A program made the translations under genes and the position numbers. Of a stretch of DNA of 64,000 nucleotides, positions 41,606-64,000 are shown one piece after another; within the stretch, counting starts at the first letter, position 1; the number at the start of each line of letters is the position of its first letter. Where the stretch lies: NCBI GenBank assembly GCA_001780285.1, contig MFGN01000017.1, forward strand, positions 37,687 through 101,686, in the 5' to 3' direction. The DNA comes from Candidatus Falkowbacteria bacterium RIFOXYD12_FULL_34_57 (GTDB lineage Bacteria; Patescibacteriota; Patescibacteriia; Patescibacteriales; UBA12075). Under the pieces are notes generated by a model. The model had not been told where the DNA came from. It ran no database searches and saw only the letters and a program-made list of their open reading frames with translations.

Positions 41606-42571
41606 TTATAAACTTTTCATTTTTGGCTTGCCGACTTGCCGGCTGAATTCACATCCACAATAATTTTGTCTATATAAATCCAACTCTTTGGATAACTTAA
41701 TTGATTTTTGAAAACCACCATCTTTCTTAAAATCTTGACATAAAAAACGAACTCCGTATTTTTTCTCCATATCAAAACCAATATTTTTTATTATGTCAAA
41801 ATTTTTATGCGGGCTGACTGTGAGCGTGGTAGTGAAAAAATCAAAATTTCTTTTTTTTGCCACCTGAACCGTTTTTTCCAACCTATCCCTGAAACACGCT
41901 TCACACCTTATTCCTCTCTCCGGCTCATTTTCCATACCACGAATTTTTTCCAGCCATTTATCGTGGCTATGGGGTCCGAGTATTAATTCTAGTTTATATT
42001 TTTTAGCTACTCTAACTACTTCTTTTAATCTTTTTTTGTATTCTGCTTTAGGGTGCATGTTGGGGTTATAATAATATAAAACAATTTTATAATTTTTTTG
42101 TAACAAACTAGAAACATATACCCCGCATCCAGCACAGCAAATATGTAACAACAATCTTGGATTCCTCTTATCTTTATGCTCCCATATTCCACCCTTGACA
42201 AATGCTGCCGCTAAAATAATCATAGCGCCAAGCATTCCGGCTAAAAAATCAAAAAAAGATGCATTCCTGTATGGTAAAAAACTTTGAATATACTCACAAA
42301 ATATTGCATAAAAAGAACTCCAAAAGAAAGCAATCATTATAGATTCAAATTTTCCATTATTTGTTAAATAAAAAAATACAAAAATCAAAAATGACAACAC
42401 GCCAAATAAACTAAAATGAATAATTTTATCCAAAAAAATAGGGGCAGGGACATTGGATGGTAATTCTTGAATAGTCAGTAGCCATAAAATAAAAAATTTC
42501 CAAAAAATTAAAAAAACAAAAACAAAAACAGCCATCTTGTTGATTTCGTTATTTTTTTTAAACAAAAACAT
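41606..42571 (-). CDS. Fusion protein: N-terminal VanZ-like membrane domain + C-terminal epoxyqueuosine reductase QueH (DUF208)
   Basis: VanZ motif ...CEYIQSFLPYRNASFFDFLAGMLG in TM region; QueH signatures LLLHICCAGC near domain start and YCGCEFS at C-terminus. Confidence 0.7.
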   Translation of the reverse strand: MFLFKKNNEINKMAVFVFVFLIFWKFFILWLLTIQELPSNVPAPIFLDKIIHFSLFGVLSFLIFVFFYLTNNGKFESIMIAFFWSSFYAIFCEYIQSFLPYRNASFFDFLAGMLGAMIILAAAFVKGGIWEHKDKRNPRLLLHICCAGCGVYVSSLLQKNYKIVLYYYNPNMHPKAEYKKRLKEVVRVAKKYKLELILGPHSHDKWLEKIRGMENEPERGIRCEACFRDRLEKTVQVAKKRNFDFFTTTLTVSPHKNFDIIKNIGFDMEKKYGVRFLCQDFKKDGGFQKSIKLSKELDLYRQNYCGCEFSRQVGKPKMKSL

Positions 42572-48376: not shown

Positions 48377-48460
48377 GTCATTTTGAGCGATAGCGAAAAA
48401 TCTCGTTTTAATTTGATATTCACGGGATTCTTCACTGCGCTGCGCTTCATTCAAAATGAT
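48377..48460. repeat. Imperfect-palindrome hairpin repeat, copy 1 (GTCATTTTGAGCGATAGCGAAAAATCTCG ... CGGGATTCTTCACT...TTCAAAATGAT)
   Basis: Left arm 48377-48405 pairs with right arm 48423-48460; about 79% identical to copy at 55580-55652 with pairing-preserving substitutions. Confidence 0.7.
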
Positions 48461-50757: not shown

Positions 50758-53184
50758 CTATCTATCTTCCCACCACCTTGTGGGCAGATTACCACATGGC
50801 AAGGTAACCACCGGAGAAATAAAGGAGTGCAATAACATATCCTGATCGGCAAGTGGAAAACCTTTATAGTCGGGACAATTACCGGCTGCGCAATAAGCTA
50901 CCACTTCATATGTATATGTTAAAACAGCTGACATAATATCGTTATCCGTATAAGTTTCCGGTCCTCCGGGATTTAGATCGTTTACCTGATCAATATGTTC
51001 TTGTATTCCGGAAAAACCGCCGTAAGGGTCATTGGAAATAGTACGATATATATTGTAATAATCTACTTCCGAATCAAGACCATCTACATCCCATGTAAAA
51101 GTAACATAATCACAATTATAATTAGTAATTGGAGCAATCTCTGGGTTGCAGAAATATGTTCTTCTAACCTCTATATTAGACCAAGCGGATGGAATCACAA
51201 ATCCATTAAACGCTCTGACTTGGTATCTATAAGAGTCAATACTTGGGGGCATCAACACTGTCCAGGTGCCAAGTCCCGGAAAAGTCAAGTTACCGCTTGC
51301 AAAGCTAGATGCCGGACTGTTTGGGTCAACCTCCCAGATGGTAGTATCCGGATCTCTTTGTATTTCATATCCGGTTTCATTACTGGATTTATCTTCCCAC
51401 TGCAAATTAACAAGCCACCCTAGAGCATCGCTACAAACCGTAGTAATAGCATTAAGATTTAAGGGGGTGCAAAGAAAGGTCCAATCCTGAGCAATAGCTG
51501 ACCAAGAAGACGGCGAAACTGCTCCAATGGAATTTACAGCTCGAATATCCACATTCCAATTTACTCCGTCAAGTGCATCATTTATCATTAAAGTCTCTAT
51601 ATCCACCTCTATGCCATCAGCTGGAAATATTTCTATACGAGTTCCCCCTGTTGGATTAGTATCTGTAAAACGCACTTCATACCAATCCTCATTTACAGAA
51701 TTATCGTTCCATGTAGCCGTCATATCGTTACAAAGCGGACCATCCGCGGCCGTAATGCCAGTGGGAGTACAAAGCTGGGTATTTACGGGTAACCAAACTG
51801 ATTGTCCTGATTCTCCCACAACAGCGTTATACGCAACAATATACACATTCCAACGAACACCGTCTGGAATACCACTGGTATTAACATTATTTATATTGTT
51901 AACAGCATCATAAAAACCCCCATCATCTCCATTAATCCCTGGATCAAGATCAATAAAATAAACTCTAAACACATCTTCGTTATTATAGATAGAAGGATCT
52001 GTACCTTGGGTTATAATACGATTACAACTAGGAGAAGAAACATTGTTTATACCCGGAACACAAAGAACTGTTGTCACTGGTACACTTCCAGAGGCTGGTG
52101 AAGACGCAGCTCCTTTACGCGTAACAACAGACACTGACCAATTTACTCCATCGGGTACAGAATTACTGACATACACCAATCCGCCCCCACTAACATTTGG
52201 AGCAGTACCTGCAACATTTACAGTAAAATCATCATTTCCATTAGCCACATTATTAAGATCATCAAAAATAATATCATACCCGGATTCATTAACAGAGTTA
52301 TCGGTCCAATTCACGGTTATATTATTACAACCACCGGAGCTTACAACCCCTATTGTTGGGGCGCAAAGAGGGGTGGCTGTGTTTCCAATAGAGGGAATCC
52401 ATCCAGATGCCAAACCATCCTTGTTTACTGATCGCACACTAGCTGTATAAGTTGCCCCATCCATCACAAAAGCATCCGAAATAGACAAACTTGCGGTATT
52501 TGCTGCACTGGTATAAATACCACTATTACCAGCCGGATTTGCTCTGGTTAACTGTATTTCAAAATGATCTTCAATTGGATTTGGCGAAGTGGAATTATCT
52601 GTCCAGGAAACAGTTACTTGTCTGCAATTATTAGTCACAATATTTACATTGCTCGGAGCAGCTGGCGCGCACATTACTGCTGTTGTAAAATTACCGGAAG
52701 CAACAGGGTTGTCACCAAGAGCATCAAATGCTGAAAAACTATAAGCAATAACGGTGTTGGTGGGCACATGCCAGGCATATGGGGCGGTAAAATTTCCCGC
52801 GGAAGCATTGCTAACAAAATTACCGGCGAGTGTTACAGTACCCGACACAAAAGATTTATTATAACAATCACTACAAGTACCAGCTGGCGGCACATTGGTA
52901 TCACACCATGAATTACAATTAGTATTTTCATTGGTGGTGTATGCTGTACTCCAGTTAACACCAGGTGTTGCGTAATCCGCATTATAACACCCCGGTTGAG
53001 GATTGGGGTCTATACATATCGTAATACCCGCCCCAGGATTACCCACATAAGCCGCCACATGATTAATTGGTGGATAAATTAAAACAAAAAACAAAAAACA
53101 AACAAAAAAAACACTAAAAACAACATAAACTTTAGTGTAAATTTTTAATCCCTTTGATTTATTTTTTTTCTTTTTCCAAAACAT
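50758..53184 (-). CDS. Large secreted surface protein with multiple fibronectin type III-like repeats
   Basis: Signal anchor; repeated ...C.P...V.W.DNS.NE.GY.I... modules (VNWTDNSVNESGYDI; ATWNDNSVNEDWYEV; LQWEDKSSNETGYEI), Cys pair per module, Thr/Asn/Gly-rich. Confidence 0.6.
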   Translation of the reverse strand: MFWKKKKNKSKGLKIYTKVYVVFSVFFVCFLFFVLIYPPINHVAAYVGNPGAGITICIDPNPQPGCYNADYATPGVNWSTAYTTNENTNCNSWCDTNVPPAGTCSDCYNKSFVSGTVTLAGNFVSNASAGNFTAPYAWHVPTNTVIAYSFSAFDALGDNPVASGNFTTAVMCAPAAPSNVNIVTNNCRQVTVSWTDNSTSPNPIEDHFEIQLTRANPAGNSGIYTSAANTASLSISDAFVMDGATYTASVRSVNKDGLASGWIPSIGNTATPLCAPTIGVVSSGGCNNITVNWTDNSVNESGYDIIFDDLNNVANGNDDFTVNVAGTAPNVSGGGLVYVSNSVPDGVNWSVSVVTRKGAASSPASGSVPVTTVLCVPGINNVSSPSCNRIITQGTDPSIYNNEDVFRVYFIDLDPGINGDDGGFYDAVNNINNVNTSGIPDGVRWNVYIVAYNAVVGESGQSVWLPVNTQLCTPTGITAADGPLCNDMTATWNDNSVNEDWYEVRFTDTNPTGGTRIEIFPADGIEVDIETLMINDALDGVNWNVDIRAVNSIGAVSPSSWSAIAQDWTFLCTPLNLNAITTVCSDALGWLVNLQWEDKSSNETGYEIQRDPDTTIWEVDPNSPASSFASGNLTFPGLGTWTVLMPPSIDSYRYQVRAFNGFVIPSAWSNIEVRRTYFCNPEIAPITNYNCDYVTFTWDVDGLDSEVDYYNIYRTISNDPYGGFSGIQEHIDQVNDLNPGGPETYTDNDIMSAVLTYTYEVVAYCAAGNCPDYKGFPLADQDMLLHSFISPVVTLPCGNLPTRWWEDR

Positions 53185-53278
53185 AGAAATTAGTTAAGGA
53201 TTTATAAAATTAAAATAAAAAATATTATCACTTTTTACTTTATAAACTTTAAACTTTTTATATTATACCACATTTTTT

Positions 53279-54466
53279 TTATCTAACAAAATCAAGCACA
53301 ATATTAATAAAAGATTGTTTAAATAGAATAATAGAAATAACTCCGGCAAAAATCCATGGGGCAAGAGGAAATTTTTTATAAATCTCAATAGTTTTCATGC
53401 CGCGCGTCTTAGCCCAACAAATTATAGCACCAACCTGATTTTTACTTATACCACCGGAAATTATGCGGCCATAATCTTTTACAAACTTTTGATCATCGTT
53501 AAGCTGTTTCGTGTTTACACTGTTAATCATCATCCCTGGAAGCAAATTATCAACCTCAATCCTAAAAACCCCGGTTTCGCGCACATAATAATTAAGGAAC
53601 TTTGCAGATAATGACATGACAAGCAAAAAAACAACCATCATTTTAATGGTTATGATTAAGTTATTTAAAGCTGTTCCAAAATTAATAAATAATCCTACTG
53701 CAGTTATAAATAAATTTAATGATACCGCGAGTATTAATAAAAAATTATTATTTTTAAATAATGCTTTTGTAATTTTTCTGGAAAACATAATCATTAAAAC
53801 AAGAAATAAATATTGATATTTGCCAATATCAAGCCCTAAATAACTGTTTATCCAATGCTTAATCCAAAAAAATAACAAAAAAATCGATAACATGCCAATT
53901 GTTTGCACAACCTGTTTCTTAATAGAAAACGATCTTCTCTTTTGTGATTGAAGAAATACTGCGCGTCTATCATTTTTAAATTTTAAAAAAAAACAAAATA
54001 GGGATCTGCATAAAATGAAAACCAAAATTATTACAAAAATATTAACAAGTAATGCAAAAGATGGGAACAGTGGTAAATATGACTTCCAATAATATTTTGT
54101 CGGTAAAAGAAAAGAGAAAACAAAAAACAACTTCACATCTCCTGCCGCCACCACCCCCTCTCTCCATAATAAAAACCCAAAAAGAAGAGATAATGAACTA
54201 TTAAGTCCCAACTTCCACAAAAACCCCTCCTTAATATTTATCATAGCAACAGGATTCAGGTTAAATATTCTTTCCCAAACAAAAGATATTGGCAGTGTTA
54301 ATTCATTCCAAAAAAATAACATGGTATAAATTATAATCCCGTAAACCAAGCCAAAAATAATCCATTTATTCCTTATTTTTCCAGTGCGAATATCTTCAAT
54401 GGAGGCAACAATACCAATTAAAAAAATAATTGGTAAAATAAAAATATCCAAAAAATTAAATTCCAT
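53279..54466 (-). CDS. A24-family (prepilin/preflagellin peptidase)-like polytopic membrane protein with long C-terminal extension
   Basis: First Asp motif ASIEDIRTGKIRNK after TM1 and second Asp motif AAGDVKLFFVF match aspartic peptidase A24 signatures; additional 200 aa of unknown function. Confidence 0.5.
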   Translation of the reverse strand: MEFNFLDIFILPIIFLIGIVASIEDIRTGKIRNKWIIFGLVYGIIIYTMLFFWNELTLPISFVWERIFNLNPVAMINIKEGFLWKLGLNSSLSLLFGFLLWREGVVAAGDVKLFFVFSFLLPTKYYWKSYLPLFPSFALLVNIFVIILVFILCRSLFCFFLKFKNDRRAVFLQSQKRRSFSIKKQVVQTIGMLSIFLLFFWIKHWINSYLGLDIGKYQYLFLVLMIMFSRKITKALFKNNNFLLILAVSLNLFITAVGLFINFGTALNNLIITIKMMVVFLLVMSLSAKFLNYYVRETGVFRIEVDNLLPGMMINSVNTKQLNDDQKFVKDYGRIISGGISKNQVGAIICWAKTRGMKTIEIYKKFPLAPWIFAGVISIILFKQSFINIVLDFVR

Positions 54467-54573
54467 ATTCCCCTCCTGTCATCCCGGACGGAGCGGAGCA
54501 AAGATCCGGGATCCATACCATGGAGACAGTGTATAAATTTTGTTACTTAAATTCACTTTGTGGATTCCGGATA

Positions 54574-55500
54574 TTACAACTCCAACACACTTCTTATTGG
54601 ATGATGCGGGTCGCCTGTTTTTACTATTTTAATATTTTTCTTTACTGATCCCAGTTCTTTTAAACCAATAAATTTTTTATATGTTTTCTGCACACCCATA
54701 CAATATTTTTGATAATTACAATTATTACAAAAATTTGGATAAAAGACCTCATAATCCGGCAAAGTTATCCAGGTGTGCGGCCAAAATTTTTCATGTAAAG
54801 CGCATAATGGGAAATGATAAAGCCTAAATTCTTTAAATCTAACAACACTGTCATAAGCCTGATCTAGATATGGATGCACCTTGTCAAAATCAATCTTAAT
54901 TTTCTCTAAATTTTCTACGGCCTGCGCTTCTGCTTCCCAAAATATCAAAATAACCCGATCAATATCGGGATAACATTTATAAATTTTTTCTAAAAATTGC
55001 GAAATACTTTTATAAGATAGCTTAGTAATCACAAATCTAACACCCACAATCTGACTATTTTTTTTATTCTTCAATAAATTACCAATTCCCTCAAAAGCTT
55101 GTTTAAACCCCCCCCTTATCCCCACAATCCCATCATGAGAAGCTCTATCGTGTCCGTGCAGAGATACATCAATTTCGGTGTTGGGATTTATGTTTAAAAA
55201 ATCTTTAGCAAAGTCTCCATAACAAAACCTACGACCATTCGTCAAAAGCTTAATTGTTTGTTTCTTAAAATTACTTTCTAAATATTTTATAATTTCTAAA
55301 AAATTTGGATGAATAGTGGGCTCCCCGCCAGTAAGATATATAGAATCCCCCGCCAAAAACCTGTCTTTTTCTTTTTCTAATCGACCAATAAGTGAATTAT
55401 AATCATAATCAAAACTCCCATCCCAGGCAGGCCAGGACGGATAGGGGTTGGTGCACATCACGCACCGATTATTGCATTTATCCCAAATACATAAATCCAT
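54574..55500 (-). CDS. Radical SAM enzyme, twitch/SPASM-like auxiliary Cys motif, paralog A of 4
   Basis: CNNRCVMC (CX3CX2C), GGEP, TNGR, SLHGH...HD...GGF, C-terminal CNNCNYQKYC (CX2CX5C). Confidence 0.75.
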   Translation of the reverse strand: MDLCIWDKCNNRCVMCTNPYPSWPAWDGSFDYDYNSLIGRLEKEKDRFLAGDSIYLTGGEPTIHPNFLEIIKYLESNFKKQTIKLLTNGRRFCYGDFAKDFLNINPNTEIDVSLHGHDRASHDGIVGIRGGFKQAFEGIGNLLKNKKNSQIVGVRFVITKLSYKSISQFLEKIYKCYPDIDRVILIFWEAEAQAVENLEKIKIDFDKVHPYLDQAYDSVVRFKEFRLYHFPLCALHEKFWPHTWITLPDYEVFYPNFCNNCNYQKYCMGVQKTYKKFIGLKELGSVKKNIKIVKTGDPHHPIRSVLEL

Positions 55501-55511
55501 ATATATTCAAC

Positions 55512-55564
55512 ATTTCCAGCCATCCAATATTATTAATTTTGGCTGGTCCGCCTTGGGCGGAAAC
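55512..55564. repeat. GC-rich hairpin motif family member: ATTTCCAGCC-N19-GGCTGGTCCGCC-TTG-GGCGGA
   Basis: 12-66 bp upstream of radical SAM paralog A start; collinear with copy at 27568-27625. Confidence 0.55.
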
Positions 55565-55579
55565 ATCTCAACTTTGATT

Positions 55580-55652
55580 GTCATCCTGAGCGAGGTCGAA
55601 GGATCTCGTTTTTCTTCTGTGGCACGGGATTCTTCACTACGTTCAGAATGAC
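55580..55652. repeat. Imperfect-palindrome hairpin repeat, copy 2 (GTCATCCTGAGCGAGGTCGAAGGATCTCG ... CGGGATTCTTCACTACGTTCAGAATGAC)
   Basis: Left arm 55580-55608, right arm 55625-55652, followed by T-run 55656-55665; between the small secreted protein gene and radical SAM paralog A. Confidence 0.7.
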
Positions 55653-55662
55653 AAGTATTTTT

Positions 55663-56124
55663 TTACTTACACATTGGAGAGGTGGTGAATGGTATATCAC
55701 TTGGAGCCCAGTCACTCCATGTTGCGTACTTATTCTGAACCTTTATTCTCCAATAATATAAAACTTCTGATTGTAGTCCCTCTCTGTCTATCTCGTAAAA
55801 CAAATTCTTGGTGCTCACTTCGCCAGAATTAAATTCAGGAGATAAAAAATCATTATTATCATCAATCTGCAAAACAAAAACATATTCATCTTCAAAAATT
55901 TCCTGATTCGCATTACAACTCCACCTAAATTTTGGAGTTGGAAAACCACTCGAGTAACACTCCACTTGATCAACTAAATCATTGGTGCACACACTTAGAT
56001 CATACCTACTATCTTGATTAATAATTTCTTGTTCCCTTGTTTTTTGATTGGAATAAACGAATAAAAAGACAAGGAAACCGAAAAAAATAATTGTAATTAT
56101 TTTTTTGACATTTTTTTTGTTCAT
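55663..56124 (-). CDS. Small secreted/membrane-anchored Cys-containing protein (153 aa)
   Basis: N-terminal signal-anchor, 5 Cys in the extracytoplasmic part, embedded inside the radical SAM operon. Confidence 0.45.
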   Translation of the reverse strand: MNKKNVKKIITIIFFGFLVFLFVYSNQKTREQEIINQDSRYDLSVCTNDLVDQVECYSSGFPTPKFRWSCNANQEIFEDEYVFVLQIDDNNDFLSPEFNSGEVSTKNLFYEIDREGLQSEVLYYWRIKVQNKYATWSDWAPSDIPFTTSPMCK

Positions 56125-56138
56125 ATTGTATTTTTAAA

Positions 56139-57062
56139 TTATTTAACAGGAATTAATTCCTGATCTCCATAATTTTTTACATACTCTTTCCATATCCCCT
56201 CGCATTGATCATAAAGTTTACATCCCTCGCAATGCCCGGTTTTTATTCTTCCGATTTCTTTTCTGGAATTTTCAACATCAAAATTTTTAAAATCCGGGGC
56301 TAAATGCTCTGATTTAAATTTTTTTACCTCGTCTAATTCACTAATTTGACTCAAATAATCCTTAAAATAACACAGGGGGACATATCTAATATGCCAATGT
56401 TCGATTTTATTTATCTTCCCAATATCAAGACACTTTCTTATATACGGCGCTGCCTTAGAAATTTGAGGAACATTTTCATTAAATCTGTTAAACGAAGCGC
56501 CGCAGGAAGGATCTACAAAAATAAATTCACAGTTTCTGATCCCCATCCCAAATATCATTTTTCCAATTTTTTCTATATTTTTATAATTCTGTTTTACGAT
56601 TGTAGTATTAGAGCCGATTCTCTCTAAACCCAAAAGTTTTTTCATATTATCAAAACCCTTAATTAACTGTTCAAAACTTCCTGAGCAATTGGTTAATTTG
56701 TCATGCAAATCACCATTGTGACCATGAATAGAAAAAATAATATCCGTAAGTCCAGCATCAACCACCTTCTTTGCAAAATCCTTATAAGCAAGCATTCGTC
56801 CGTTGGTGGCAATATTAATGGTTTTGAATCCAAGTTTATGCGCAGAATTAATCAGTTTTAAAATATCCGGTCTAATAAAAGTCTCTCCCCCTATAAACTC
56901 TAAGTAGGTTGTTCCTCTCTCTCGGGCGCTTTTCATTTCTAATTTAATTTGCTCCGTAGTTTTATTTAGTAAATTGCGCTTATCCTCATCAATGCAAAAC
57001 ACACACATATTATTACAATCATACCCCGTTATTATTACTGTTTTTTTTATTTTTTTTGTCAT
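56139..57062 (-). CDS. Radical SAM enzyme, paralog B of 4
   Basis: CNNMCVFC, GGETF, TNGRMLAYKDFAKK, SIHGHNGDLHD...GSF, C-terminal CEGCKLYDQCEGIWKEY. Confidence 0.8.
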   Translation of the reverse strand: MTKKIKKTVIITGYDCNNMCVFCIDEDKRNLLNKTTEQIKLEMKSARERGTTYLEFIGGETFIRPDILKLINSAHKLGFKTINIATNGRMLAYKDFAKKVVDAGLTDIIFSIHGHNGDLHDKLTNCSGSFEQLIKGFDNMKKLLGLERIGSNTTIVKQNYKNIEKIGKMIFGMGIRNCEFIFVDPSCGASFNRFNENVPQISKAAPYIRKCLDIGKINKIEHWHIRYVPLCYFKDYLSQISELDEVKKFKSEHLAPDFKNFDVENSRKEIGRIKTGHCEGCKLYDQCEGIWKEYVKNYGDQELIPVK

Positions 57063-57066
57063 TTTT

Positions 57067-58008
57067 TTATTTAACAGATTTTAATTCACTAATTCCATAA
57101 AGATCCGCATATTTTTTCCAAATTCCATAACAAATTTTGTCATATTTACATTTTTCGCATTCTTTTGACTTTATCTTTTTCCCCTTTCTTTCTTCATCTA
57201 AAGACGCTTCAAAATCAGGTCCGATTAAAAGTGTATCTAATTGCCCCATATCATTAATGTATTTTTCACACCCCGGCACCAGGCAGGGAACCATGTTATA
57301 AATAAAACAACTTGCCTTATCTTTTGCGATATCAATACCCTTGCAAATATGCGGTCCGACGTCACTCATGTGTGGAACAATTGCCCTTGGATTATCACAA
57401 GTATTCCCCTCAAGCATCACAAATGTAAAACGAATTTCGTTAATATCAAAATTTTTCATTAAAAATTTAACATGTTCTTCAAGTGTGCTGTAATTCAATT
57501 TAGTTAAAACAATATTAATATTAACCTTTACGCCCAAACTATTTAAGTTTCTTATTCCCTCTGTGGTCTGTTTGAAAGTTCCCGGTGCCCCCATTATTTT
57601 GTCATGAATTTCCTCAATGTAAGAATGTAAAGAAATAACAAAATGGGTAACTCCGCCATTAACCAATCTTTGACAATATTTTTTATAGGCATACACCCTG
57701 CCATTAGATTGAACCTCTATGTGTCTAAGTCCTATTGTTTTAGCATACTTAATTAAAAGAATTAGATCCTTGCGCAAATTCGGTTCACCCCCGGAAAAAG
57801 CTACACCACGAGCATTCATTTTTTTTGCTCGATCTATATCCTTAATTACCTCTTCAAAGGGTTTTACGGCGCAATAATCCCTACTATTAATACTGCGGTC
57901 TATTTGCATGCCCGTTGAACACATAATGCATCGACAATTACATTTAAATATAATCAAACATTCTACTTTTCCAAGACTATCATTTTTAACATTTTTATTT
58001 TTTCCCAT
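57067..58008 (-). CDS. Radical SAM enzyme, paralog C of 4
   Basis: CNCRCIMC, GGEP, SNGRVYAYKKYCQR, HD...GTF, C-terminal CEKCKYDKICYGIWKKY. Start moved to ATG 58008 (MGKNKN, matching the paralog D N-terminus) instead of the track TTG at 58044. Confidence 0.75.
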   Translation of the reverse strand: MGKNKNVKNDSLGKVECLIIFKCNCRCIMCSTGMQIDRSINSRDYCAVKPFEEVIKDIDRAKKMNARGVAFSGGEPNLRKDLILLIKYAKTIGLRHIEVQSNGRVYAYKKYCQRLVNGGVTHFVISLHSYIEEIHDKIMGAPGTFKQTTEGIRNLNSLGVKVNINIVLTKLNYSTLEEHVKFLMKNFDINEIRFTFVMLEGNTCDNPRAIVPHMSDVGPHICKGIDIAKDKASCFIYNMVPCLVPGCEKYINDMGQLDTLLIGPDFEASLDEERKGKKIKSKECEKCKYDKICYGIWKKYADLYGISELKSVK

Positions 58009-58027
58009 ACTTTCAACTTTATAAACC

Positions 58028-58978
58028 TTATAAACTTTTAACAAAATATCTTATTTCATCATCTCCAAATAAATTTAGGTATTCTTTCCAAATTCCGCCA
58101 CACTCTTTATGATACTGACATTGCCTGCAAATATCTATATTTACGCGATAAGTGTCAAAATATTTTCCTTTGTTATTTTTAATAATTCTTTTTGGATCAT
58201 ATCCCACTTGATGGATAGTATCATCACGCATTTTGGTGTTAACAAAAATAATATTTTTTTGACTTTTTATTTCGGGGCTAAATAAACAAAATGGGAAATC
58301 AAAAAAACCAAATTCATTAAATTGATCGCTAATCTCTATTAAACCATTAAGTTTATTATACAAATCTTTCAAGCGAACCACAAGGTGCGAATAATATATT
58401 TTTGCACCACCATCAGGAATAAGATCAAGAAGATACCAATTTTTAACCCCAATAGAAAGGATAAAATTTCCAAAATTAAGTAAATCGCCGTAATTTAAAC
58501 GTGATATTACCGTACTAATATTAACATGAACATTTTTATATCTTTGTACATTCTTTATGCCGGTCAATATTTGCCCAAAAGACCCCGGTGTTCTGGTAAT
58601 GGCATCATGAGTTTCCTTGTTTGGACCAAGCAAAGAAAAAGTAACTTTATTTAGACCGGTATTTATAATTTTTTCACAAAAATCATCATAGGCAAAAAAA
58701 CGACCATTAGTGCTAAGTGATATAGTCTTGTATCCCAGGTCATTTGCTTCTTTAACCAGCTTAATAATATCTGCGCGTATAGTTGGTTCACCTCCGGTAA
58801 ATTCTACTGAATCGCAACCATTTTTAAATCCCCTTTTTAAATCTTTAGTTATATCATTATAGCTTCTGTCTTGATAATCATTCTCACAATCAGCAATAGA
58901 ACAAACTATACAATTATTATTACACCTAAATCCAGTTAAAACCAATAAATTTTTTTTATTATTATTTTTATTGCCCAT
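58028..58978 (-). CDS. Radical SAM enzyme, paralog D of 4
   Basis: CNNNCIVC, GGEP, TNGRFFAYDDFCEK, THD...GSF, C-terminal CRQCQYHKECGGIWKEY. Confidence 0.8.
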   Translation of the reverse strand: MGNKNNNKKNLLVLTGFRCNNNCIVCSIADCENDYQDRSYNDITKDLKRGFKNGCDSVEFTGGEPTIRADIIKLVKEANDLGYKTISLSTNGRFFAYDDFCEKIINTGLNKVTFSLLGPNKETHDAITRTPGSFGQILTGIKNVQRYKNVHVNISTVISRLNYGDLLNFGNFILSIGVKNWYLLDLIPDGGAKIYYSHLVVRLKDLYNKLNGLIEISDQFNEFGFFDFPFCLFSPEIKSQKNIIFVNTKMRDDTIHQVGYDPKRIIKNNKGKYFDTYRVNIDICRQCQYHKECGGIWKEYLNLFGDDEIRYFVKSL

Positions 58979-58987
58979 ATTGTCTCA

Positions 58988-59947
58988 TTAATAGTATTGC
59001 CGATGGCAGCACCCCAAACACTTATCACAAACCCCATTTTTTAATATATTTTTTCTAAAAATCTTTATTTTTTTATTATTCCAAATTATTTTTATTTTTT
59101 CTTTTTTTAAGTTTCCAATCACATTATTACACCCCAAAACCCCTCCTCCGGGTGTTACATCTAGATTTGGCATAATATTCAAACCAAGCCATGGGATATT
59201 ACAATTACGAGAAAAATTATTTAATTCTTTGTTGTAGTATTTTTCTAAATCATTAACTTTTATATATGGTAAAAATAAAATTTTAAACCTCGTCTTTAAA
59301 TTTTTAATTTTAAAAATTTGATCTTTTAAAACATTTATATTAATTTTATCTTTACAAAAATACGCATGTTGAAAAGATAAAACATTTATATTTGCTTTTT
59401 CAAACTCAAAGAAATCTACAATTTTTTTAATCTCTTTATAATTTTTATCCGTTAAAACAAAATTTATATTAATTTTTATCCTTTTTATGTCTTGTACTGT
59501 CTTAATCTTGTAAAAATCTTCTAAACTATTCATGGAAACATTAATCTGTTCAATACTACTACTCCCAATATCTTTATAAAAAATATTAAGCAAATTTCCA
59601 TTTGTTGTAAAAGATAGCTTTACATTATTTAATGTTGCAAATTCCAACATTTTAGAAAAATCTTTATTTATCAAAGGCTCACCACCAAAAAGATGTATCT
59701 TTGGCATAACAAAAAAATTTCTTTTTGCATCAATAACAATTTTTTTAAAATCATCAAAAGACAAATCTTGCGCTAGATATTTTTTGTAATAATCATCACT
59801 CAGCTGATAACAATACCCACAAACATTATCACACCTTAGTGTTATGTGAACCAATAAAAACAAGGGTTGGGGTGACCAATTGCCAAATAATTGAAAAATA
59901 TTAAAAAATTTATTTTTTGTTGCAATGAATTGTTTTATGTTTATCAT
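58988..59947 (-). CDS. Radical SAM / SPASM-domain protein
   Basis: CDNVCGYC core motif, GGEP, TNG, C-terminal Cys-rich CNNVIG...CDKCLGCCH consistent with SPASM-type auxiliary clusters. Confidence 0.7.
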   Translation of the reverse strand: MINIKQFIATKNKFFNIFQLFGNWSPQPLFLLVHITLRCDNVCGYCYQLSDDYYKKYLAQDLSFDDFKKIVIDAKRNFFVMPKIHLFGGEPLINKDFSKMLEFATLNNVKLSFTTNGNLLNIFYKDIGSSSIEQINVSMNSLEDFYKIKTVQDIKRIKININFVLTDKNYKEIKKIVDFFEFEKANINVLSFQHAYFCKDKININVLKDQIFKIKNLKTRFKILFLPYIKVNDLEKYYNKELNNFSRNCNIPWLGLNIMPNLDVTPGGGVLGCNNVIGNLKKEKIKIIWNNKKIKIFRKNILKNGVCDKCLGCCHRQYY

Positions 59948-59973
59948 TATATTTTTATAAGTTATTAATTATT

Positions 59974-61701
59974 TTAATTTTTTAATTCATATAAAAACAT
60001 ATTACACCTGCCTCCATCGTGCATTTTCTTTTCTATATCCAACAATATATTATAGTCAAAATTCAATCTTACTAAATTATAAAATTCTTCACGGTTAAAT
60101 GTCGTTGTGTTTCTTACACAATCAATAGCTGTTTGTTCAATGTATATATTTGAATACTTTTTTTTAATGTGTGGCATCTGAGATATAAATTCTTTTTCTA
60201 TTTGCTCTATTTTATAATCATCACTAAATCCATAAATAGCTGGGACAATGCTGTATCGACTATTTGCAAGTATTATTGAATTGGGTTTAATTTTATCCAA
60301 AGAAATTAAAGCTTGCTCATACTCCGAATTCCAAAAAAGTGTTCCTTCGTCTACCCCCGGTAAACTATAAGAATAATAAAAAAAATTATTGGCTATAATA
60401 ATTAGCGTTGTTAATAAAACCATAACAGGGATATTCCTTATTCTCCGCAGAAAGAAACCATATAATATTATTAATGGTATAAATAAATATGCCAAATAAT
60501 TAAAGGCGTCTAATCTTTGATCGTAGTGAAATGTGGTGATAACAAAAAAGAAAATTAAAAAATATAAAAAATAAATCCAAGTCCTTTTATTCTTCATTGC
60601 CAATACCGGAATAAAAAGTATTATCCAAAACAGCGGAACATGGGTTTTTAAGAAATAAAAATTATAAAAAAAATTTTTAGATAATATAAGAAAATGGTAT
60701 TTTAATAATCCCATAACATTATTTCCATTGTTTACAATCTGGGTTGCCATTTCTGGATCGGTAAAATTTCCGGCATTATCTGATCCTATAAATGAAGAAC
60801 TGGCGTATAACAAAAAAACTGGAAAAATACAGGGCAATGAAAGCAATAAAAATAAATTTATTTTATTATTAATAAAATCATTTTTAGAATTTCTTGATTC
60901 AAGATAAAATATAACAAAATAAATGAAAAACCATATTTCTGAACCAACTCTTAAAAAAACGGAAAACAATAAAATACCAAAACTCCAAATCAGGGTATTA
61001 ATATCTTTTGTTTTTAAATACAACAACAGGGTAAACAAGCTAAAAACATTAAACACTTCTCCCAATATAGCGTAATCTGGTGCCAAACTGCAAAAATAAT
61101 TATTGTAATAAAATAAAAATACCAACCCACACAAAAATGCTATTATGTTTTTCTTTGTTAATAATTTAATAATAAAATAAACCGCGATAGCCTCAAGCAT
61201 TACAAATACGGTATTAATATTTGCTAAAACCTTAAAATTTATTTGAAAAAAACTGTCCAAAAAATTAAAAAATAAAAAATATGCTTTAGCTTTAAAAATA
61301 CCACCAAAATCAGCTATTAAACCAATGTCTACTGGCTCAGCTATGACGCTTAAAGCGCTCATCCCCTTGTCTAATCTAGAAACAACCGGGATATGTATTA
61401 ATAAAAAAATTCCAGTCACAAGAACTAAAATAAAAAACAACAAAAGAAAATAATCATTATAAATTATTTTTTTAAGATGCTTCGCGTTTAAAAACAAATA
61501 ATAAATAATTATTTCTGGTAAAAAAATAATCAATAAAAAATAGAAGATGGAAAGATATGGAGATATATCAACATATGCCTCGTAAATTTGCAAAGGAAAT
61601 AGAACCACAACAAGAACTTGAACAATAAAAAATAATAAAAAATTATATGGCATTTTTAAAAACCAATATTTTATATCTTTTCCCTTTTCTTTTTTATTCA
61701 T
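59974..61701 (-). CDS. Polytopic membrane protein (about 12 TM) with C-terminal soluble domain; possible GT-C fold glycosyltransferase (ArnT/PMT-like)
   Basis: Topology and size (575 aa), start overlaps the upstream GT2 gene by 8 nt (classic polyprenyl-P-sugar synthase + GT-C pairing); no sequence signature confidently matched. Confidence 0.35.
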   Translation of the reverse strand: MNKKEKGKDIKYWFLKMPYNFLLFFIVQVLVVVLFPLQIYEAYVDISPYLSIFYFLLIIFLPEIIIYYLFLNAKHLKKIIYNDYFLLLFFILVLVTGIFLLIHIPVVSRLDKGMSALSVIAEPVDIGLIADFGGIFKAKAYFLFFNFLDSFFQINFKVLANINTVFVMLEAIAVYFIIKLLTKKNIIAFLCGLVFLFYYNNYFCSLAPDYAILGEVFNVFSLFTLLLYLKTKDINTLIWSFGILLFSVFLRVGSEIWFFIYFVIFYLESRNSKNDFINNKINLFLLLSLPCIFPVFLLYASSSFIGSDNAGNFTDPEMATQIVNNGNNVMGLLKYHFLILSKNFFYNFYFLKTHVPLFWIILFIPVLAMKNKRTWIYFLYFLIFFFVITTFHYDQRLDAFNYLAYLFIPLIILYGFFLRRIRNIPVMVLLTTLIIIANNFFYYSYSLPGVDEGTLFWNSEYEQALISLDKIKPNSIILANSRYSIVPAIYGFSDDYKIEQIEKEFISQMPHIKKKYSNIYIEQTAIDCVRNTTTFNREEFYNLVRLNFDYNILLDIEKKMHDGGRCNMFLYELKN

Positions 61702-62404
61702 ATTTTATTTTTATGTTGTAAAACAATCTTACAATGTCAATTATAGTGCTTGGCACCCTCGCAAGCACTCCGGTGGTACTTTTTCTTTTTTCCTCACAAA
61801 TAACCGGAATTTCCTTAATTCTTAATCCTCCCATTTGAGACCTAAGAATAAATTCTGTATCAAAAAGCTCTCTATCTGTAATACATTTTTTCACTATGTT
61901 TATAATTATATTTTTTCTAAACAACTTTAAACCATGAGTATCCACACCACCGGAATCAAAAAATAATTTTAGAAATAAATTAAAGTTTTTAGTAATAAAA
62001 CGACGCAAAAGTGACCTAGTATCTTCTGATTCAGACATAACCTTAGAACCTAAAACAATATCACTTTCCCCTGATAATAAATAATTGATTGAAGTGATTA
62101 AAAAATCTACATCCCAAAAATCAATATTAAAAATTGCTACATTGTCACCATTGCACCGCAGAATACCATCTTTAATAGCTCTTCCATAATTGGAGGTTTT
62201 TAGACTAATCATTTTAATATTTTGAAAATCTTCTGACAATTCTTTTGCTATATTCTTTGTGTTATCCGTACTTCCATTTTCAACCAAAAAAATTTCATAC
62301 TTTTCAAACTTTCTATTATTCATTTCATTGATTATTGATTTCACTTCGGTTTCCAATATTTCCTCCTCGTTATATATGGGTATTACTATCGACAATAATT
62401 TCAT
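61694..62404 (-). CDS. Glycosyltransferase family 2, polyprenyl-phosphate sugar synthase-like (ArnC/DPM1/GtrB-like)
   Basis: LSIVIPIYNEE...LVENGSTDNT GT-A motifs; 236 aa. Confidence 0.8.
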   Translation of the reverse strand: MKLLSIVIPIYNEEEILETEVKSIINEMNNRKFEKYEIFLVENGSTDNTKNIAKELSEDFQNIKMISLKTSNYGRAIKDGILRCNGDNVAIFNIDFWDVDFLITSINYLLSGESDIVLGSKVMSESEDTRSLLRRFITKNFNLFLKLFFDSGGVDTHGLKLFRKNIIINIVKKCITDRELFDTEFILRSQMGGLRIKEIPVICEEKRKSTTGVLARVPSTIIDIVRLFYNIKIKYE

Positions 62405-62408
62405 AGAA

Positions 62409-63779
62409 TTATTTACTATATAATAATTTAAAATTTTTTAACAAAAACAACAAATCGCTCATACTTCTTATTCCAACCAACTTTTTAAAAATGAATCTTG
62501 GTCTTAAATAAAATCTTCTGATTGCCAAATTTCTTAAACTCCAAACATCCCTCGTTGTCAAATCTTCAGTTTCAATAACAGGAAAAAATGAACCATCAAA
62601 AACATCTACATTATCATTAATCCATTTATTTTTTATTGCCTCTTCTCGTAATTTTGTACCGTATATAGGTATTGGTATGTTAAAAGATGCATAATCACAA
62701 TCTAGATTTTTAGCAAGCAAAATTGTTTTAATTATTGATTCTTTATTTTCTCCCGGTAAACCAATAATAAAGTATCCCATTGTTTTAATGCCCACATCCC
62801 TGCACAATGCAAATGTTTTTTTCATGTCTTCTTGTGTTATACCCTTATTATATTTTTTTAATATTTCATCATCTCCGCTTTCTAGGCCAAAATGAATTGT
62901 ATGACAACCCGATTTTTTCATTAACAACAAAAGTTCTTTATCATTCAAAACATCTACCCGTGAATCACAAACCCATGATATATCAATTTTTTCCTGAATA
63001 ATTTTTCTGCACAACTCTTTTGTTCTTTCTTTATTGACACCAAATGTGTTATCTCTAAATATTATTTCTTTTATACCAAGTTTTTCTATATATCTTAACT
63101 CTTCTAAAACATTCTCAATATTTCGCGCTAAATATTCAATATTTTGAACTACACAGTAAGAACATTTATACGGGCAGCCAAAACTAGTCAACACCGAAGT
63201 GATCGGGTTTCTTTTGCCGTGTGGCAATATATATTTATTAATCGGTAATAATTCATGCCTGGGAATGGGAACAATAAAATTATTCTTTGGAAAATAATTT
63301 CCGCCGTTTATTATTTTATTATCTTTTCTATAAACTAAATTTTTTATGTCACTTTTATTGTTTAAATAATCCAATATGCTATTGGTAACAAAATTTAATA
63401 AAACCGCATCTATTTCAACAAATCTCTCTAAAAAAAATTCTGGTTTGTGCAATAAACAACCACCGGTTCCAATGGCCTTGATGTTGGGTATTTTTTCTTT
63501 CAATTTTCTTATGAACTCTATATCACTATACAAAGAAGAAGAACCTATCATAAAAACAACCACATTAATATCCTTATCAATTTTTAACAATGCTTCTTCG
63601 GGGCTTAATTTTAAAATATTTGCATCTAATAGCTGAATTTCATGCTCCCTGCAAAGAATACCGCTCAACAATAAAATATCTGTTGGTGGCCAAGAGTAGC
63701 CCCACTTTGATTTTGTGCTTGAATACATATCCCTGAGATATAAAGATTGGGCAGGGGGATTTAATAATAAAATTTTCAT
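62409..63779 (-). CDS. B12-binding-domain radical SAM protein (class B radical SAM, methyltransferase-like)
   Basis: N-terminal cobalamin-binding-like Rossmann region (MKILLLNPP...), radical SAM motif GCPYKCSYC, 456 aa. Confidence 0.75.
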   Translation of the reverse strand: MKILLLNPPAQSLYLRDMYSSTKSKWGYSWPPTDILLLSGILCREHEIQLLDANILKLSPEEALLKIDKDINVVVFMIGSSSLYSDIEFIRKLKEKIPNIKAIGTGGCLLHKPEFFLERFVEIDAVLLNFVTNSILDYLNNKSDIKNLVYRKDNKIINGGNYFPKNNFIVPIPRHELLPINKYILPHGKRNPITSVLTSFGCPYKCSYCVVQNIEYLARNIENVLEELRYIEKLGIKEIIFRDNTFGVNKERTKELCRKIIQEKIDISWVCDSRVDVLNDKELLLLMKKSGCHTIHFGLESGDDEILKKYNKGITQEDMKKTFALCRDVGIKTMGYFIIGLPGENKESIIKTILLAKNLDCDYASFNIPIPIYGTKLREEAIKNKWINDNVDVFDGSFFPVIETEDLTTRDVWSLRNLAIRRFYLRPRFIFKKLVGIRSMSDLLFLLKNFKLLYSK

Positions 63780-64000
63780 AATCTATTTTCTTCTTTAAAC
63801 CATTTAATTGTATCCTTAATTGTATCATTAATAGATATTGGTTGATAATCAAGATATTTTTGAGCTTTTTCTATGGAGGAAAAATTAGTCAGCTTGGCTG
63901 TTTTTATTTTTGCACTAGAAATTAGCGGGGTAATTTTTGTAATTTTTCCTATTATCTCCAATATTGACGCACCAACCAATGCGGGATAATACGGCAATTC
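63776..64000 (-). CDS. NAD-dependent epimerase/dehydratase, C-terminal fragment (gene continues beyond window end)
   Basis: Frame open to window edge; C-terminal ...KAQKYLDYQPISINDTIKDTIKWFKEE resembles extended-SDR sugar epimerase C-termini; 4-nt overlap with B12-rSAM start. Confidence 0.5.
   Translation of the reverse strand, partial: ELPYYPALVGASILEIIGKITKITPLISSAKIKTAKLTNFSSIEKAQKYLDYQPISINDTIKDTIKWFKEENRL

Follow-up and report, generated by a model that had tools for sequence, protein, structure and literature searches.

What might a bacterium make with six radical S-adenosylmethionine (SAM) enzymes that are encoded side by side with genes for glycosylation from a polyprenyl phosphate? 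The question is posed by a stretch of 64,000 nucleotides, here called the window, from Candidatus Falkowbacteria bacterium RIFOXYD12_FULL_34_57 (contig MFGN01000017.1, positions 37,687 to 101,686), in which a reading made from the sequence alone had singled out ten tightly packed minus-strand genes at 54574-64000 and had judged their layout to fit no characterised pathway. The ten open reading frames (ORFs) and all their spacings are confirmed by the ORF list, Pfam assigns Radical_SAM to six of the proteins, and the layout indeed stands outside characterised pathways, in that we found no paper describing this cluster and the NCBI annotation gives every gene in it as a hypothetical protein. The answer that we prefer, and hold tentatively at somewhat less than even confidence, is that exported surface proteins are radically modified, cleaved by a protease and glycosylated from a radical-tailored polyprenyl-phosphate sugar. 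With equal reserve we take the flagged genes, together with a membrane protease gene that directly follows them (Table 1), for the downstream two-thirds of a cell-envelope operon that would mature such proteins. What carries this view is the gene content, the orthogroups and their synteny, the catalytic residues and FlaK-like fold of the protease, the PMT_2 homology of a membrane protein and the way in which glycosylation modules are intercalated in the operon; the rest we infer.

The radical SAM array and its conservation

The flagged genes were correctly grouped as an operon, but its extent had been drawn too short. The same-strand, tightly packed array continues for about 10 kb beyond the window end, as read in the related locus L087 (contig MFGI01000030.1, GCA_001778205.1), and on the downstream side the protease gene belongs to the same unit, as probably does the following gene for a large surface protein with fibronectin type III (FN3) repeats. 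The full operon thereby measures at least 21 kb and holds 19 or more genes, of which no fewer than 10 encode radical SAM enzymes. Its upstream part comprises, in order, two radical SAM genes (one partial), an AsnB-like amidotransferase, a fifth HxsC-like radical SAM enzyme of 299 residues (orthogroup r4), a PMT_2 protein, a second class-B radical SAM enzyme, a second family 2 glycosyltransferase (GT2) and the epimerase at the window end. Within the window the epimerase gene overlaps that of the class-B-like radical SAM enzyme by 4 nt, a 4-nt gap separates the latter from the GT2 gene, and the GT2 gene overlaps that of a 575-residue membrane protein by 8 nt, after which follow, in transcription order, gaps of 26 and 9 nt, an overlap of 17 nt and gaps of 4 and 14 nt, the exception to the tight spacing being a 162-nt gap at 55501-55662 that holds a hairpin. 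Because a scan for promoters and terminators gave results no different from shuffled sequence, the operon boundaries are drawn from gene spacing only. In L087 a 309-nt intergenic gap (L087:879-1187) lies between the first, partial radical SAM gene and the remaining upstream array and may be the site of the operon promoter; it also contains a 30-codon hydrophobic ORF (MGLKIIFALCYFQVLGLIQTGYIKQTARYF). Downstream, beyond the FN3-repeat gene, come ribosomal protein L9 and then CTP synthase, and the locus as a whole is surrounded by housekeeping genes (L9, CTP synthase, ClpB).

At the heart of the window part stand four radical SAM paralogs, orthogroups r2, r6, r0 and r1, with an SPASM-type enzyme directly upstream. 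The SPASM call of the sequence-only reading holds, the domain scoring above its cutoff (Table 1), and orthologs of 37-40% identity are found at an equivalent relative position in loci L001 and L037. The pairwise identity of the four paralogs is only 24-30%. Recent duplication within the window was considered and ruled out, each paralog representing an old orthogroup in average-linkage clustering. Homologs of r0, the most conserved member, are 57-77% identical across hundreds of Patescibacteria sequences, r6 has orthologs of 62-73% identity in L001, L003, L037, L056 and L018, and the upstream r4 has orthologs in 27 loci. The paralog nearest HxsC proper is r1, which occurs in 52 loci and nearly always directly upstream of the protease gene. 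All four share a CX3CX2C motif and a C-terminal C...CX2CX5C set; C19, C23, C26, C231, C284 and C287 are invariant in a five-sequence alignment, and the additional cysteine that completes CX2CX5C is kept in the four HxsC-like paralogs. Likewise, seven cysteines are invariant in 25 r0 orthologs, and among 247 full-length family members CX3CX2C is present in 230 and a C-terminal CX2CX4-6C in 233. The auxiliary-cluster cysteines on which the earlier proposal of twitch-type enzymes depended are therefore there, and as far as alignments can tell r0, r1, r2 and r6 carry a cysteine set able to bind an auxiliary [4Fe-4S] cluster, as expected of SPASM/twitch proteins.

The further suggestion that these paralogs are BtrN-like did not hold up, since their best NCBIfam families are HxsC or HxsC4, and the protein that the characterised HxsC matures is an exported one (PMC13128918). 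They do resemble BtrN and BlsE in being small radical SAM enzymes of about 300 residues with a single C-terminal auxiliary cluster and no peptide-recognition domain, and in a profile search r0 finds as its best PDB sequence matches BlsE (E 5.7e-19), the tetraether synthase Tes (7tol, E 8e-15) and SkfB. The match to BlsE is however limited to the radical SAM core (r0 residues 15-179), and the NCBIfam BlsE model gives the paralogs 56-87 bits (cutoff 400), which is below their HxsC and HxsC4 scores.

The conservation of this arrangement was followed in 91 loci (numbered with the prefix L) that were collected via r0 by an alignment-based metagenome scan, a scan of genome contigs with the single protein having given one locus; relatives of r0 occur in at least 423 metagenome stretches. 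ORFs were called and clustered with simple scripts of our own, and the radical SAM family was split by average linkage, single linkage at 38% identity having merged all paralogs. More than 80 Patescibacteria loci keep the orthogroups in a common order, usually r4, r2, r5 or r6, r3, r0, in some loci a small protein termed sm70, r1, the protease and a secreted protein, often followed by pilin genes, and the gene set is thus co-conserved, as the sequence-only reading had supposed. A well-covered set of 18 independent loci with at least 3.5 kb on each side of r0, in which r0 is present by construction, holds the protease and r1 in 17 loci each, a PMT_2-like gene in 11, a gene of the secreted immunoglobulin-like (Ig) family in 10, pilin genes in seven, a class-B radical SAM enzyme in four and a GT2 in three, with a median of 6.5 radical SAM genes per locus (range 3-10). 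Since a GT2 or class-B enzyme is near in only three or four of the 18 loci and a PMT_2-like gene in 11, the glycosylation genes constitute an optional module and not the core. Indeed, seven of the 18 have no PMT_2-like, GT2 or class-B radical SAM gene within 10 kb and yet keep the array, the protease and the secreted protein.

How the locus varies is best seen in L091, a 51.9-kb Logan contig (SRR22388293) from a close relative (89% identity in CTP synthase). The run r0-r1-protease-FN3-L9-PyrG is kept there and the upstream set differs, consisting of a 791-residue SPASM radical SAM enzyme, a 527-residue double GT2 and a TsaD-like protein, with no PMT_2 or class-B radical SAM gene within 10 kb. 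With r0 at 71% and the protease at 55% identity against 89% for CTP synthase in this nearest relative, strictly vertical inheritance of the array was dropped as an explanation. From this comparison the locus behaves as a variable cassette at a fixed position, and the variable upstream genes at a fixed chromosomal position suggest lineage-specific variation of a surface product.

Among the accessory genes, a NodU/TobZ-type carbamoyltransferase together with DUF5989 and a small SxtJ-like gene occurs in L001, L003, L026 and L090, and pairs of Kae1/TsaD-like and YrdC-like genes occur in L020, L021 and L041; such recurring carbamoyltransferase functions, single or split, suggest O-carbamoylation of the product. 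L005 (CAYRDK010000002.1), which is titled 'uncultured Planctomycetia bacterium', has about ten HxsC-like paralogs and an A24-like protease in the typical Patescibacteria order and is possibly a mis-binned contig.

Table 1. Positions of the features discussed, in the window unless a locus is named (aa, amino acids; TM, transmembrane; SDR, short-chain dehydrogenase/reductase; GT-C, glycosyltransferase of the C fold class)
Feature	Position	Strand	Remarks
NAD-dependent SDR/epimerase, HpnA-like	63776..64000	-	C-terminal 74 codons of 327 aa; gene runs past window end
Class-B-like radical SAM enzyme, HpnJ/AprD4-like, 456 aa	62409..63779	-	Pfam Radical_SAM only; HpnJ 207 bits (cutoff 577.6); AprD4 139 bits
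GT2, polyprenyl-phosphate-sugar-synthase-like, 236 aa	61694..62404	-	Pfam Glycos_transf_2 E 1.2e-21; no predicted TM helix
Polytopic membrane protein, by homology a diverged PMT_2-type GT-C, 575 aa	59974..61701	-	Some 12 TM helices, then a soluble C-terminal domain (about 130 aa)
SPASM-type radical SAM enzyme, 319 aa	58988..59947	-	Pfam Radical_SAM and SPASM, the latter 26.4 bits (cutoff 21.5)
HxsC-like twitch radical SAM enzyme, orthogroup r2, 316 aa	58028..58978	-	HxsC4 152 bits (cutoff 500), HxsC 112 bits; orthologs in 30 loci
HxsC-like twitch radical SAM enzyme, orthogroup r6, 325 aa	57067..58044	-	HxsC4 120 bits, HxsC 115 bits; 11 loci
HxsC-like twitch radical SAM enzyme, orthogroup r0, 307 aa	56139..57062	-	Most conserved member of the array; HxsC4 141 bits
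Secreted/anchored Ig/FN3-like protein, 153 aa	55663..56124	-	Pfam Ig_Rha78A_N E 5e-6; one N-terminal hydrophobic helix; 4 Cys
Hairpin	55578-55654	-	Imperfect; a short intergenic repeat present as two inverted copies; no T-tract after it
HxsC-like radical SAM enzyme, orthogroup r1, 308 aa	54574..55500	-	HxsC 163.3 bits, model positions 30-289 of 292 (cutoff 267.9)
GxGD-type (Peptidase A24/FlaK-like) aspartyl membrane protease, 395 aa	53279..54466	-	Downstream of the flagged genes
Anchored FN3-repeat surface protein, 808 aa	50758..53184	-	Pfam fn3; clusters with the Ig family
Copies of the short repeat	48377-48389, 54478-54490, 55580-55592, 55640-55652		Copy 54478-54490 lies between r1 and the protease gene
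Hxs-type genes beside the array	L017:3936-7420, L031:5560-7865, L033:1327-3898		
Type IV pilus genes after the cluster	L003:11318-20945, L037, downstream ends of L008/L009/L020/L021/L026		

A dedicated membrane protease and its exported neighbours

The protein encoded immediately downstream of r1 appears from its predicted structure to have a FlaK-like fold. A sequence-profile search of its family against the PDB returned nothing, and the relationship to FlaK was revealed only by way of the predicted structure. Two aspartates, D25 and D110 (the latter in AAGD[AV]KLF), are kept by every sequence of two alignments, one with 30 members and one with 17, and 25 of 30 members of the family match PF01478 (Peptidase_A24), the window protein itself scoring just under the Pfam gathering score (23.6 vs 26.5). 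Taking the two aspartates, the modelled fold and PF01478 together, it can be placed among the Peptidase A24 enzymes. In a profile search of 1.84 billion representatives the family has 650 relatives (50%-identity representatives) at E <= 1e-30, mostly over the full length, and it is a large unnamed A24 subfamily. It differs from the known A24 enzymes FlaK, PibD, PilD and TadV in an insertion of about 200 residues, which contributes extra transmembrane helices and a small alpha/beta domain, in its AAGD motif, where the first glycine of GxGD is replaced by alanine, in having putative substrates without a glycine at position -1, and in that a canonical PilD exists beside it in related genomes (L003).

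The gene after the protease encodes a short Lys/Arg-rich N-terminus followed by one hydrophobic helix in 32 of 40 loci, these proteins falling into the Ig family (18) and two other small families (5 each). The window holds two members of the Ig family, the 153-residue protein in front of the hairpin and the FN3-repeat protein downstream of the protease, and both display the motif C-x(4-10)-QPxCY...PTPxxxW after the anchor that is seen in Ig-family members. The former is what the sequence-only reading had called a small secreted Cys protein, and it shares the motif and a C-terminal cysteine with 19 relatives; the latter has an ortholog directly after the protease gene in L091. Both are candidate substrates or acceptors of the pathway. 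A RiPP-like modification (that is, one of the kind found in ribosomally synthesized and post-translationally modified peptides) of the small secreted protein, which had been offered earlier as a second choice, is in the light of these data at least as well supported as the lipid-linked sugar hypothesis that was then put first.

In several lineages type IV pilus genes (PilM, PilO, PilB, PilT, PilC, pilins with a GFTLIE motif, and the canonical PilD) stand directly after the cluster. Elsewhere in the window, 40328-41371 encodes a PilT-like ATPase, and the one ORF at 41606-42571 encodes both a VanZ-like membrane domain, at the N-terminus, and a domain of the QueH (epoxyqueuosine reductase) type.

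The hairpin between the Ig gene and r1, also noted before, is genuine in so far as it folds at -29 kcal/mol with z = -4.3, and it is made from copies of a short repeat, core GTCATYCYGARCG, of which the window has four where 0.11 would be expected. The repeat looks like an element of the REP/MITE kind (repetitive extragenic palindrome or miniature inverted-repeat transposable element), and neither hairpin nor repeat has an Rfam family, a search of 53000-64000 having returned nothing.

Glycosylation modules with a radical SAM enzyme of their own

The four genes that precede the SPASM enzyme had been read as an epimerase, a B12-binding radical SAM enzyme, a GT2 and a GT-C-like protein. The epimerase, which in its full length of 327 residues was read in L087, matches NCBIfam HpnA over the full length with 309.9 bits (E 1.6e-92) without reaching the cutoff of 367.65. 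The second protein is a radical SAM enzyme as stated, but the B12-binding part of its description is not borne out, no such domain (PF02310) being found by Pfam at E <= 0.01 and the best solved relative being AprD4 (PDB 6fd2, E 2.8e-34); its upstream class-B paralog does match PF02310. Relatives of it adjoin GT2 and PMT_2 genes in L038, L069, L085 and L089, and we propose that it tailors the sugar. The GT2 call is upheld by Pfam. Below-cutoff NCBIfam matches of this protein are to PgfS, ArnC, Dol-P-hexose transferase, AglJ and PpgS, the longest alignments being with the ArnC, Dol-P-hexose transferase and PpgS models, all far below cutoff, and it aligns with ArnC of the PDB over residues 2-203 (E 5e-7); the second, upstream GT2 is AglJ/Dol-P-hexose-transferase-like, with 137 bits on AglJ.

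The 575-residue membrane protein has no direct Pfam or NCBIfam match, but the GT-C call is substantiated by profile-profile comparison, in which hhalign pairs its family with a cluster-associated family, 15 of whose 19 members are PMT_2-positive, at 99.5% probability (E 4e-23, 475 columns). In this alignment the 'DE.W' of the 575-residue family stands opposite 'RLDKG', with one aspartate kept, and the upstream paralog matches PMT_2 (PF13231) directly. By profile homology, from which its fold is likewise taken, the protein is a diverged PMT_2-type GT-C. An AlphaFold2 model made from six sequences (mean predicted local distance difference test score 46.7) was too poor for a fold search, and the profile of a combined GT-C alignment found only noise in the PDB.

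The triad of GT2, class-B radical SAM enzyme and GT-C is present twice in the operon as diverged copies, the two class-B enzymes being 30% identical, the GT2s 25% and the GT-Cs about 25% over a short stretch, and the HpnA-like SDR and the AsnB-like amidotransferase accompany the two modules. Such modules are intercalated at varying positions of the array in L038, L069, L085, L056 and the window, which argues for functional coupling rather than chance adjacency. Furthermore, L066 (3793-5508) and L089 (7805-9520) encode 571-residue fusions in which a GT2 domain at the N-terminus is joined to a radical SAM domain at the C-terminus; the two share 46.5% identity, and each is adjacent to a gene for a PMT_2-type or related GT-C. 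The former lies inside a core locus and is followed directly by the gene for a relative of the 575-residue protein, and the locus of the latter also has a PseC/ArnB-like aminotransferase, a class-B radical SAM enzyme and two PMT_2 genes. The fused radical SAM domain was considered as an ortholog of the window SPASM protein and rejected, as it has no BLAST similarity to any radical SAM enzyme of the window; with no ortholog detectable there, the fusions support coupling of GT2 and radical SAM enzymes in general and of no specific window gene. Radical tailoring of a lipid-linked sugar before its transfer by the GT-C, the hypothesis first put forward for this locus, therefore fits the recurrent, intercalated and in part fused module well, but is not supported as the core role of the operon, the glycosylation genes being optional among the 18 loci and the hypothesis having left out the protease and the secreted-protein gene.

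Pairs of a polyprenyl-phosphate sugar synthase and a GT-C are familiar from ArnC/ArnT, GtrB/GtrC, Dpm1/PMT and the PgfS/PgfM/PgfE system of Streptococcus mutans. The window GT2 is like these in being translationally coupled (through the 8-nt overlap) to a PMT_2-related polytopic protein and in having an NAD-dependent epimerase in the same operon. It is unlike these pairs in that the module has a third integral member, the class-B-type radical SAM enzyme, that the GT-C is too diverged for a direct PMT_2 match and that the module is embedded in a radical SAM array. A second likeness is to hopanoid tailoring by HpnA, HpnI, HpnJ and HpnK, given the adjacency of the HpnA-like SDR (310 bits), HpnJ-like radical SAM enzymes (192-207 bits) and GT2s. 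HpnJ has been proposed to contract the ring of a lipid-bound glucosamine and so provides a precedent for a class-B radical SAM enzyme acting on a lipid-attached sugar (PMC9204698). The window scores however fall short of the cutoffs, neither a squalene-hopene cyclase nor HpnH nor HpnK turned up, and the carrier here is presumably polyprenyl phosphate, with the product passed on to the GT-C.

These matches could be taken to mean that the HpnA-, HpnJ- and Tes-like enzymes remodel membrane lipids, modifying lipids or polyprenols scavenged from the host, for example through C-C coupling or a rearrangement of head groups, and Patescibacteria are not known to synthesize lipids de novo. The HpnA score of the epimerase, the resemblance of the class-B-like enzymes to HpnJ and to a ladderane-lipid radical SAM family, and the match of the r0 profile to Tes are in line with this. 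The scores are nevertheless all below cutoffs and cover mainly the common radical SAM core, the pairing of GT2 with PMT_2, the protease and the secreted proteins are left unexplained, and no lipid-synthesis genes were seen in any locus, so that we regard lipid remodelling as very improbable.

More serious is the possibility that the whole operon is a glycan or glycolipid pathway, in which all the radical SAM enzymes would act one after another on a sugar linked to a nucleotide or to polyprenyl phosphate, the reactions being dehydration, epimerisation, decarboxylation, ring contraction or C-methylation, before the GT-C transfers it to a surface acceptor, and in which the protease and the Ig proteins would be the acceptor or assembly side or else unrelated neighbours. 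The GT2-radical SAM fusions agree with it, as do the BlsE match of r0 and the lack of a peptide-recognition domain in the paralogs, the PMT_2-like genes in 11 of the 18 loci, the intercalation of the modules in the array, and the presence in related loci of an HpnA-like SDR, a PseC/ArnB-like aminotransferase, a NodU/TobZ-type carbamoyltransferase, SGNH/GDSL proteins and an AsnB-like amidotransferase. It is on the other hand in poor agreement with the seven loci that dispense with the glycosylation genes, it gives the invariant GxGD protease no role, the radical SAM domain of the fusions has no BLAST similarity to any in the window, and the closest named families of the paralogs are HxsC and HxsC4, with HxsB and HxsD above cutoff and genes for His-Xaa-Ser (HxS) repeats beside the array in several loci. 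Taken by itself we consider this pathway somewhat unlikely, and nearly as likely as the maturation of exported proteins that we prefer.

Relation to Hxs and the proposed maturation pathway

In the Hxs system, the exported protein HxsA, which consists of His-Xaa-Ser repeats, is matured by HxsB and HxsC and processed at its N-terminus, the whole constituting a demonstrated antiphage system (PMC13128918). The operon is like it in having a radical SAM cluster together with the C-terminal auxiliary cysteine set, r1 aligning to nearly the entire HxsC model, and the target of Hxs is an exported protein that is N-terminally processed. The differences are that the window operon has four or five diverged HxsC-like paralogs (elsewhere up to about ten) where Hxs has one, and that the GxGD protease, the Ig/FN3 proteins and the GT2/GT-C modules are absent from Hxs systems. 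Searches of the window and the 10 kb upstream found no HxsA (six-frame regular expression and tblastn) and no HxsD (TIGR03976, tblastn), the window SPASM protein reaches only 34 bits on HxsB (TIGR03978, cutoff 370), and a search with the HxsA-type leader motif FLTxEEG turned up no other precursor class in the window or L087. Nor do the paralogs reach the NCBIfam cutoffs, neither r1 on HxsC (TIGR03977) nor r2, r0 and r6 on HxsC4 (NF038332). Because of these scores, and because HxsA, HxsB and HxsD are all missing from this region, the locus is related to an Hxs system but not a member of one.

Eight related loci (about 8 of 84; among them L017, L031, L033, L035, L049, L076 and L077) do have HxS-repeat genes with a shared leader of consensus FPxIKKxLKxFLTxEEG, and in L017, L031 and L033 these adjoin HxsB (505-546 bits, cutoff 370) and HxsD (70, cutoff 50), with an HxsA4 match of 81 against a cutoff of 55 and HxsA3 matches of about 64, at the cutoff of 65. 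The only HxsC-like proteins in the loci with HxsB and HxsD are the array orthogroups, r1 scoring 175-212 bits there, with no separate above-cutoff HxsC.

Two small families without a Pfam or NCBIfam match, neither of them present in the window, accompany the array elsewhere. The protein sm70, of about 70 residues and consensus KEYVVIYxSQEHxEVLGYVxA...EAKxYxVxEAEI, is encoded between r0 and r1 in 28 loci (e.g. L046:6654-6869 and L078:10974-11210), and sm68, of about 68 residues, precedes r4 in eight. An HxsD-like nature of sm70 and sm68 was rejected at an hhalign probability of 0.1%.

It could be argued from these relationships that the operon is an expanded Hxs-type system, the array maturing a secreted conflict effector, either for antiphage 'gatekeeping' like HxsA or against a host bacterium, with the glycosylation modules as add-ons. 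The family matches to HxsC and HxsC4, the HxsB, HxsD and HxsA3/HxsA4-type proteins and HxS repeats beside the array, the antiphage role of Hxs itself, the faster divergence of the cluster genes compared with housekeeping genes and the different upstream set in close relatives would all be compatible with such a function. Apart from the missing Hxs partners and the rarity of HxS repeats, however, PADLOC reports only generic viperin-core similarity, the cluster holds the same position among housekeeping genes (L9, CTP synthase, ClpB) in a relative, and the 57-77% identity of r0 across very many lineages is unusual for sporadic defence genes; a conflict system is accordingly improbable in our estimate.

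According to the maturation pathway that we prefer, the HxsC-like enzymes would put radical-derived modifications on the Ig/FN3 precursors in the cytoplasm, in the manner of HxsB and HxsC acting on the exported HxsA, and the GxGD protease would remove or trim the short basic N-terminal segment at the membrane. Meanwhile the GT2 would load a sugar onto polyprenyl phosphate, the class-B-like radical SAM enzyme and the SDR would remodel this lipid-linked sugar, much as has been proposed for HpnJ and lipid-bound glucosamine, and after flipping the GT-C would transfer it to the exported protein on the outer face.

Several observations weigh against this pathway. The Ig/FN3 proteins are only candidates for substrates of the HxsC-like enzymes, an Ig-family gene is found in just 10 of the 18 well-covered loci, the secreted neighbours do not show the class III signal motif, with its Gly(-1), that substrates of A24 peptidases should have, and the Ig/FN3 proteins could be simple Sec substrates. 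The HxsC-like paralogs have no N-terminal peptide-recognition domain, their CX3CX2C beginning at residue 16-23, and the best solved sequence relative of r0 is BlsE, a sugar-nucleotide enzyme and no peptide maturase, while the GT2-radical SAM fusions point to sugar substrates for at least some radical SAM enzymes of the cluster. Furthermore, the HxsC, HxsC4 and HpnJ scores are all far under the curated cutoffs, the window has no HxsA, HxsB, HxsD or sm70-type partner, and many of the loci compared are incomplete at their ends, with ORFs called by simple scripts.

The components all belong to known superfamilies, and the closest analogues at the level of the system are Hxs and glycosylation of the ArnC/ArnT or Pgf type; what is undescribed is the combination of a multi-paralog HxsC-like array with a dedicated GxGD protease subfamily and GT2/GT-C modules that have a radical SAM enzyme of their own. 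In its widest form, which we think rather unlikely, the proposal would be of a Patescibacteria-wide pathway in which 5-10 HxsC-like radical SAM enzymes and the GxGD protease build a new modification on Ig/FN3 proteins, with radical cross-links, a radical-rearranged sugar (carbocyclic or deoxy) delivered via a new GT-C clade, or both, and in which variation of the cassette tunes the surface for episymbiotic attachment or phage evasion.

A large part of bacterial diversity falls to the Patescibacteria (the Candidate Phyla Radiation, CPR), which live attached to other cells, and little is known of how they construct their surface. The present operon is found in many of these ultra-small bacteria and is dense in radical chemistry. 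The chemistry of HxsC-type maturases is likewise still unsolved, and from an understanding of this operon one might gain new modifications of proteins or sugars, the natural substrates of a class of HxsC-like enzymes and a means to study how the surface of the CPR varies.

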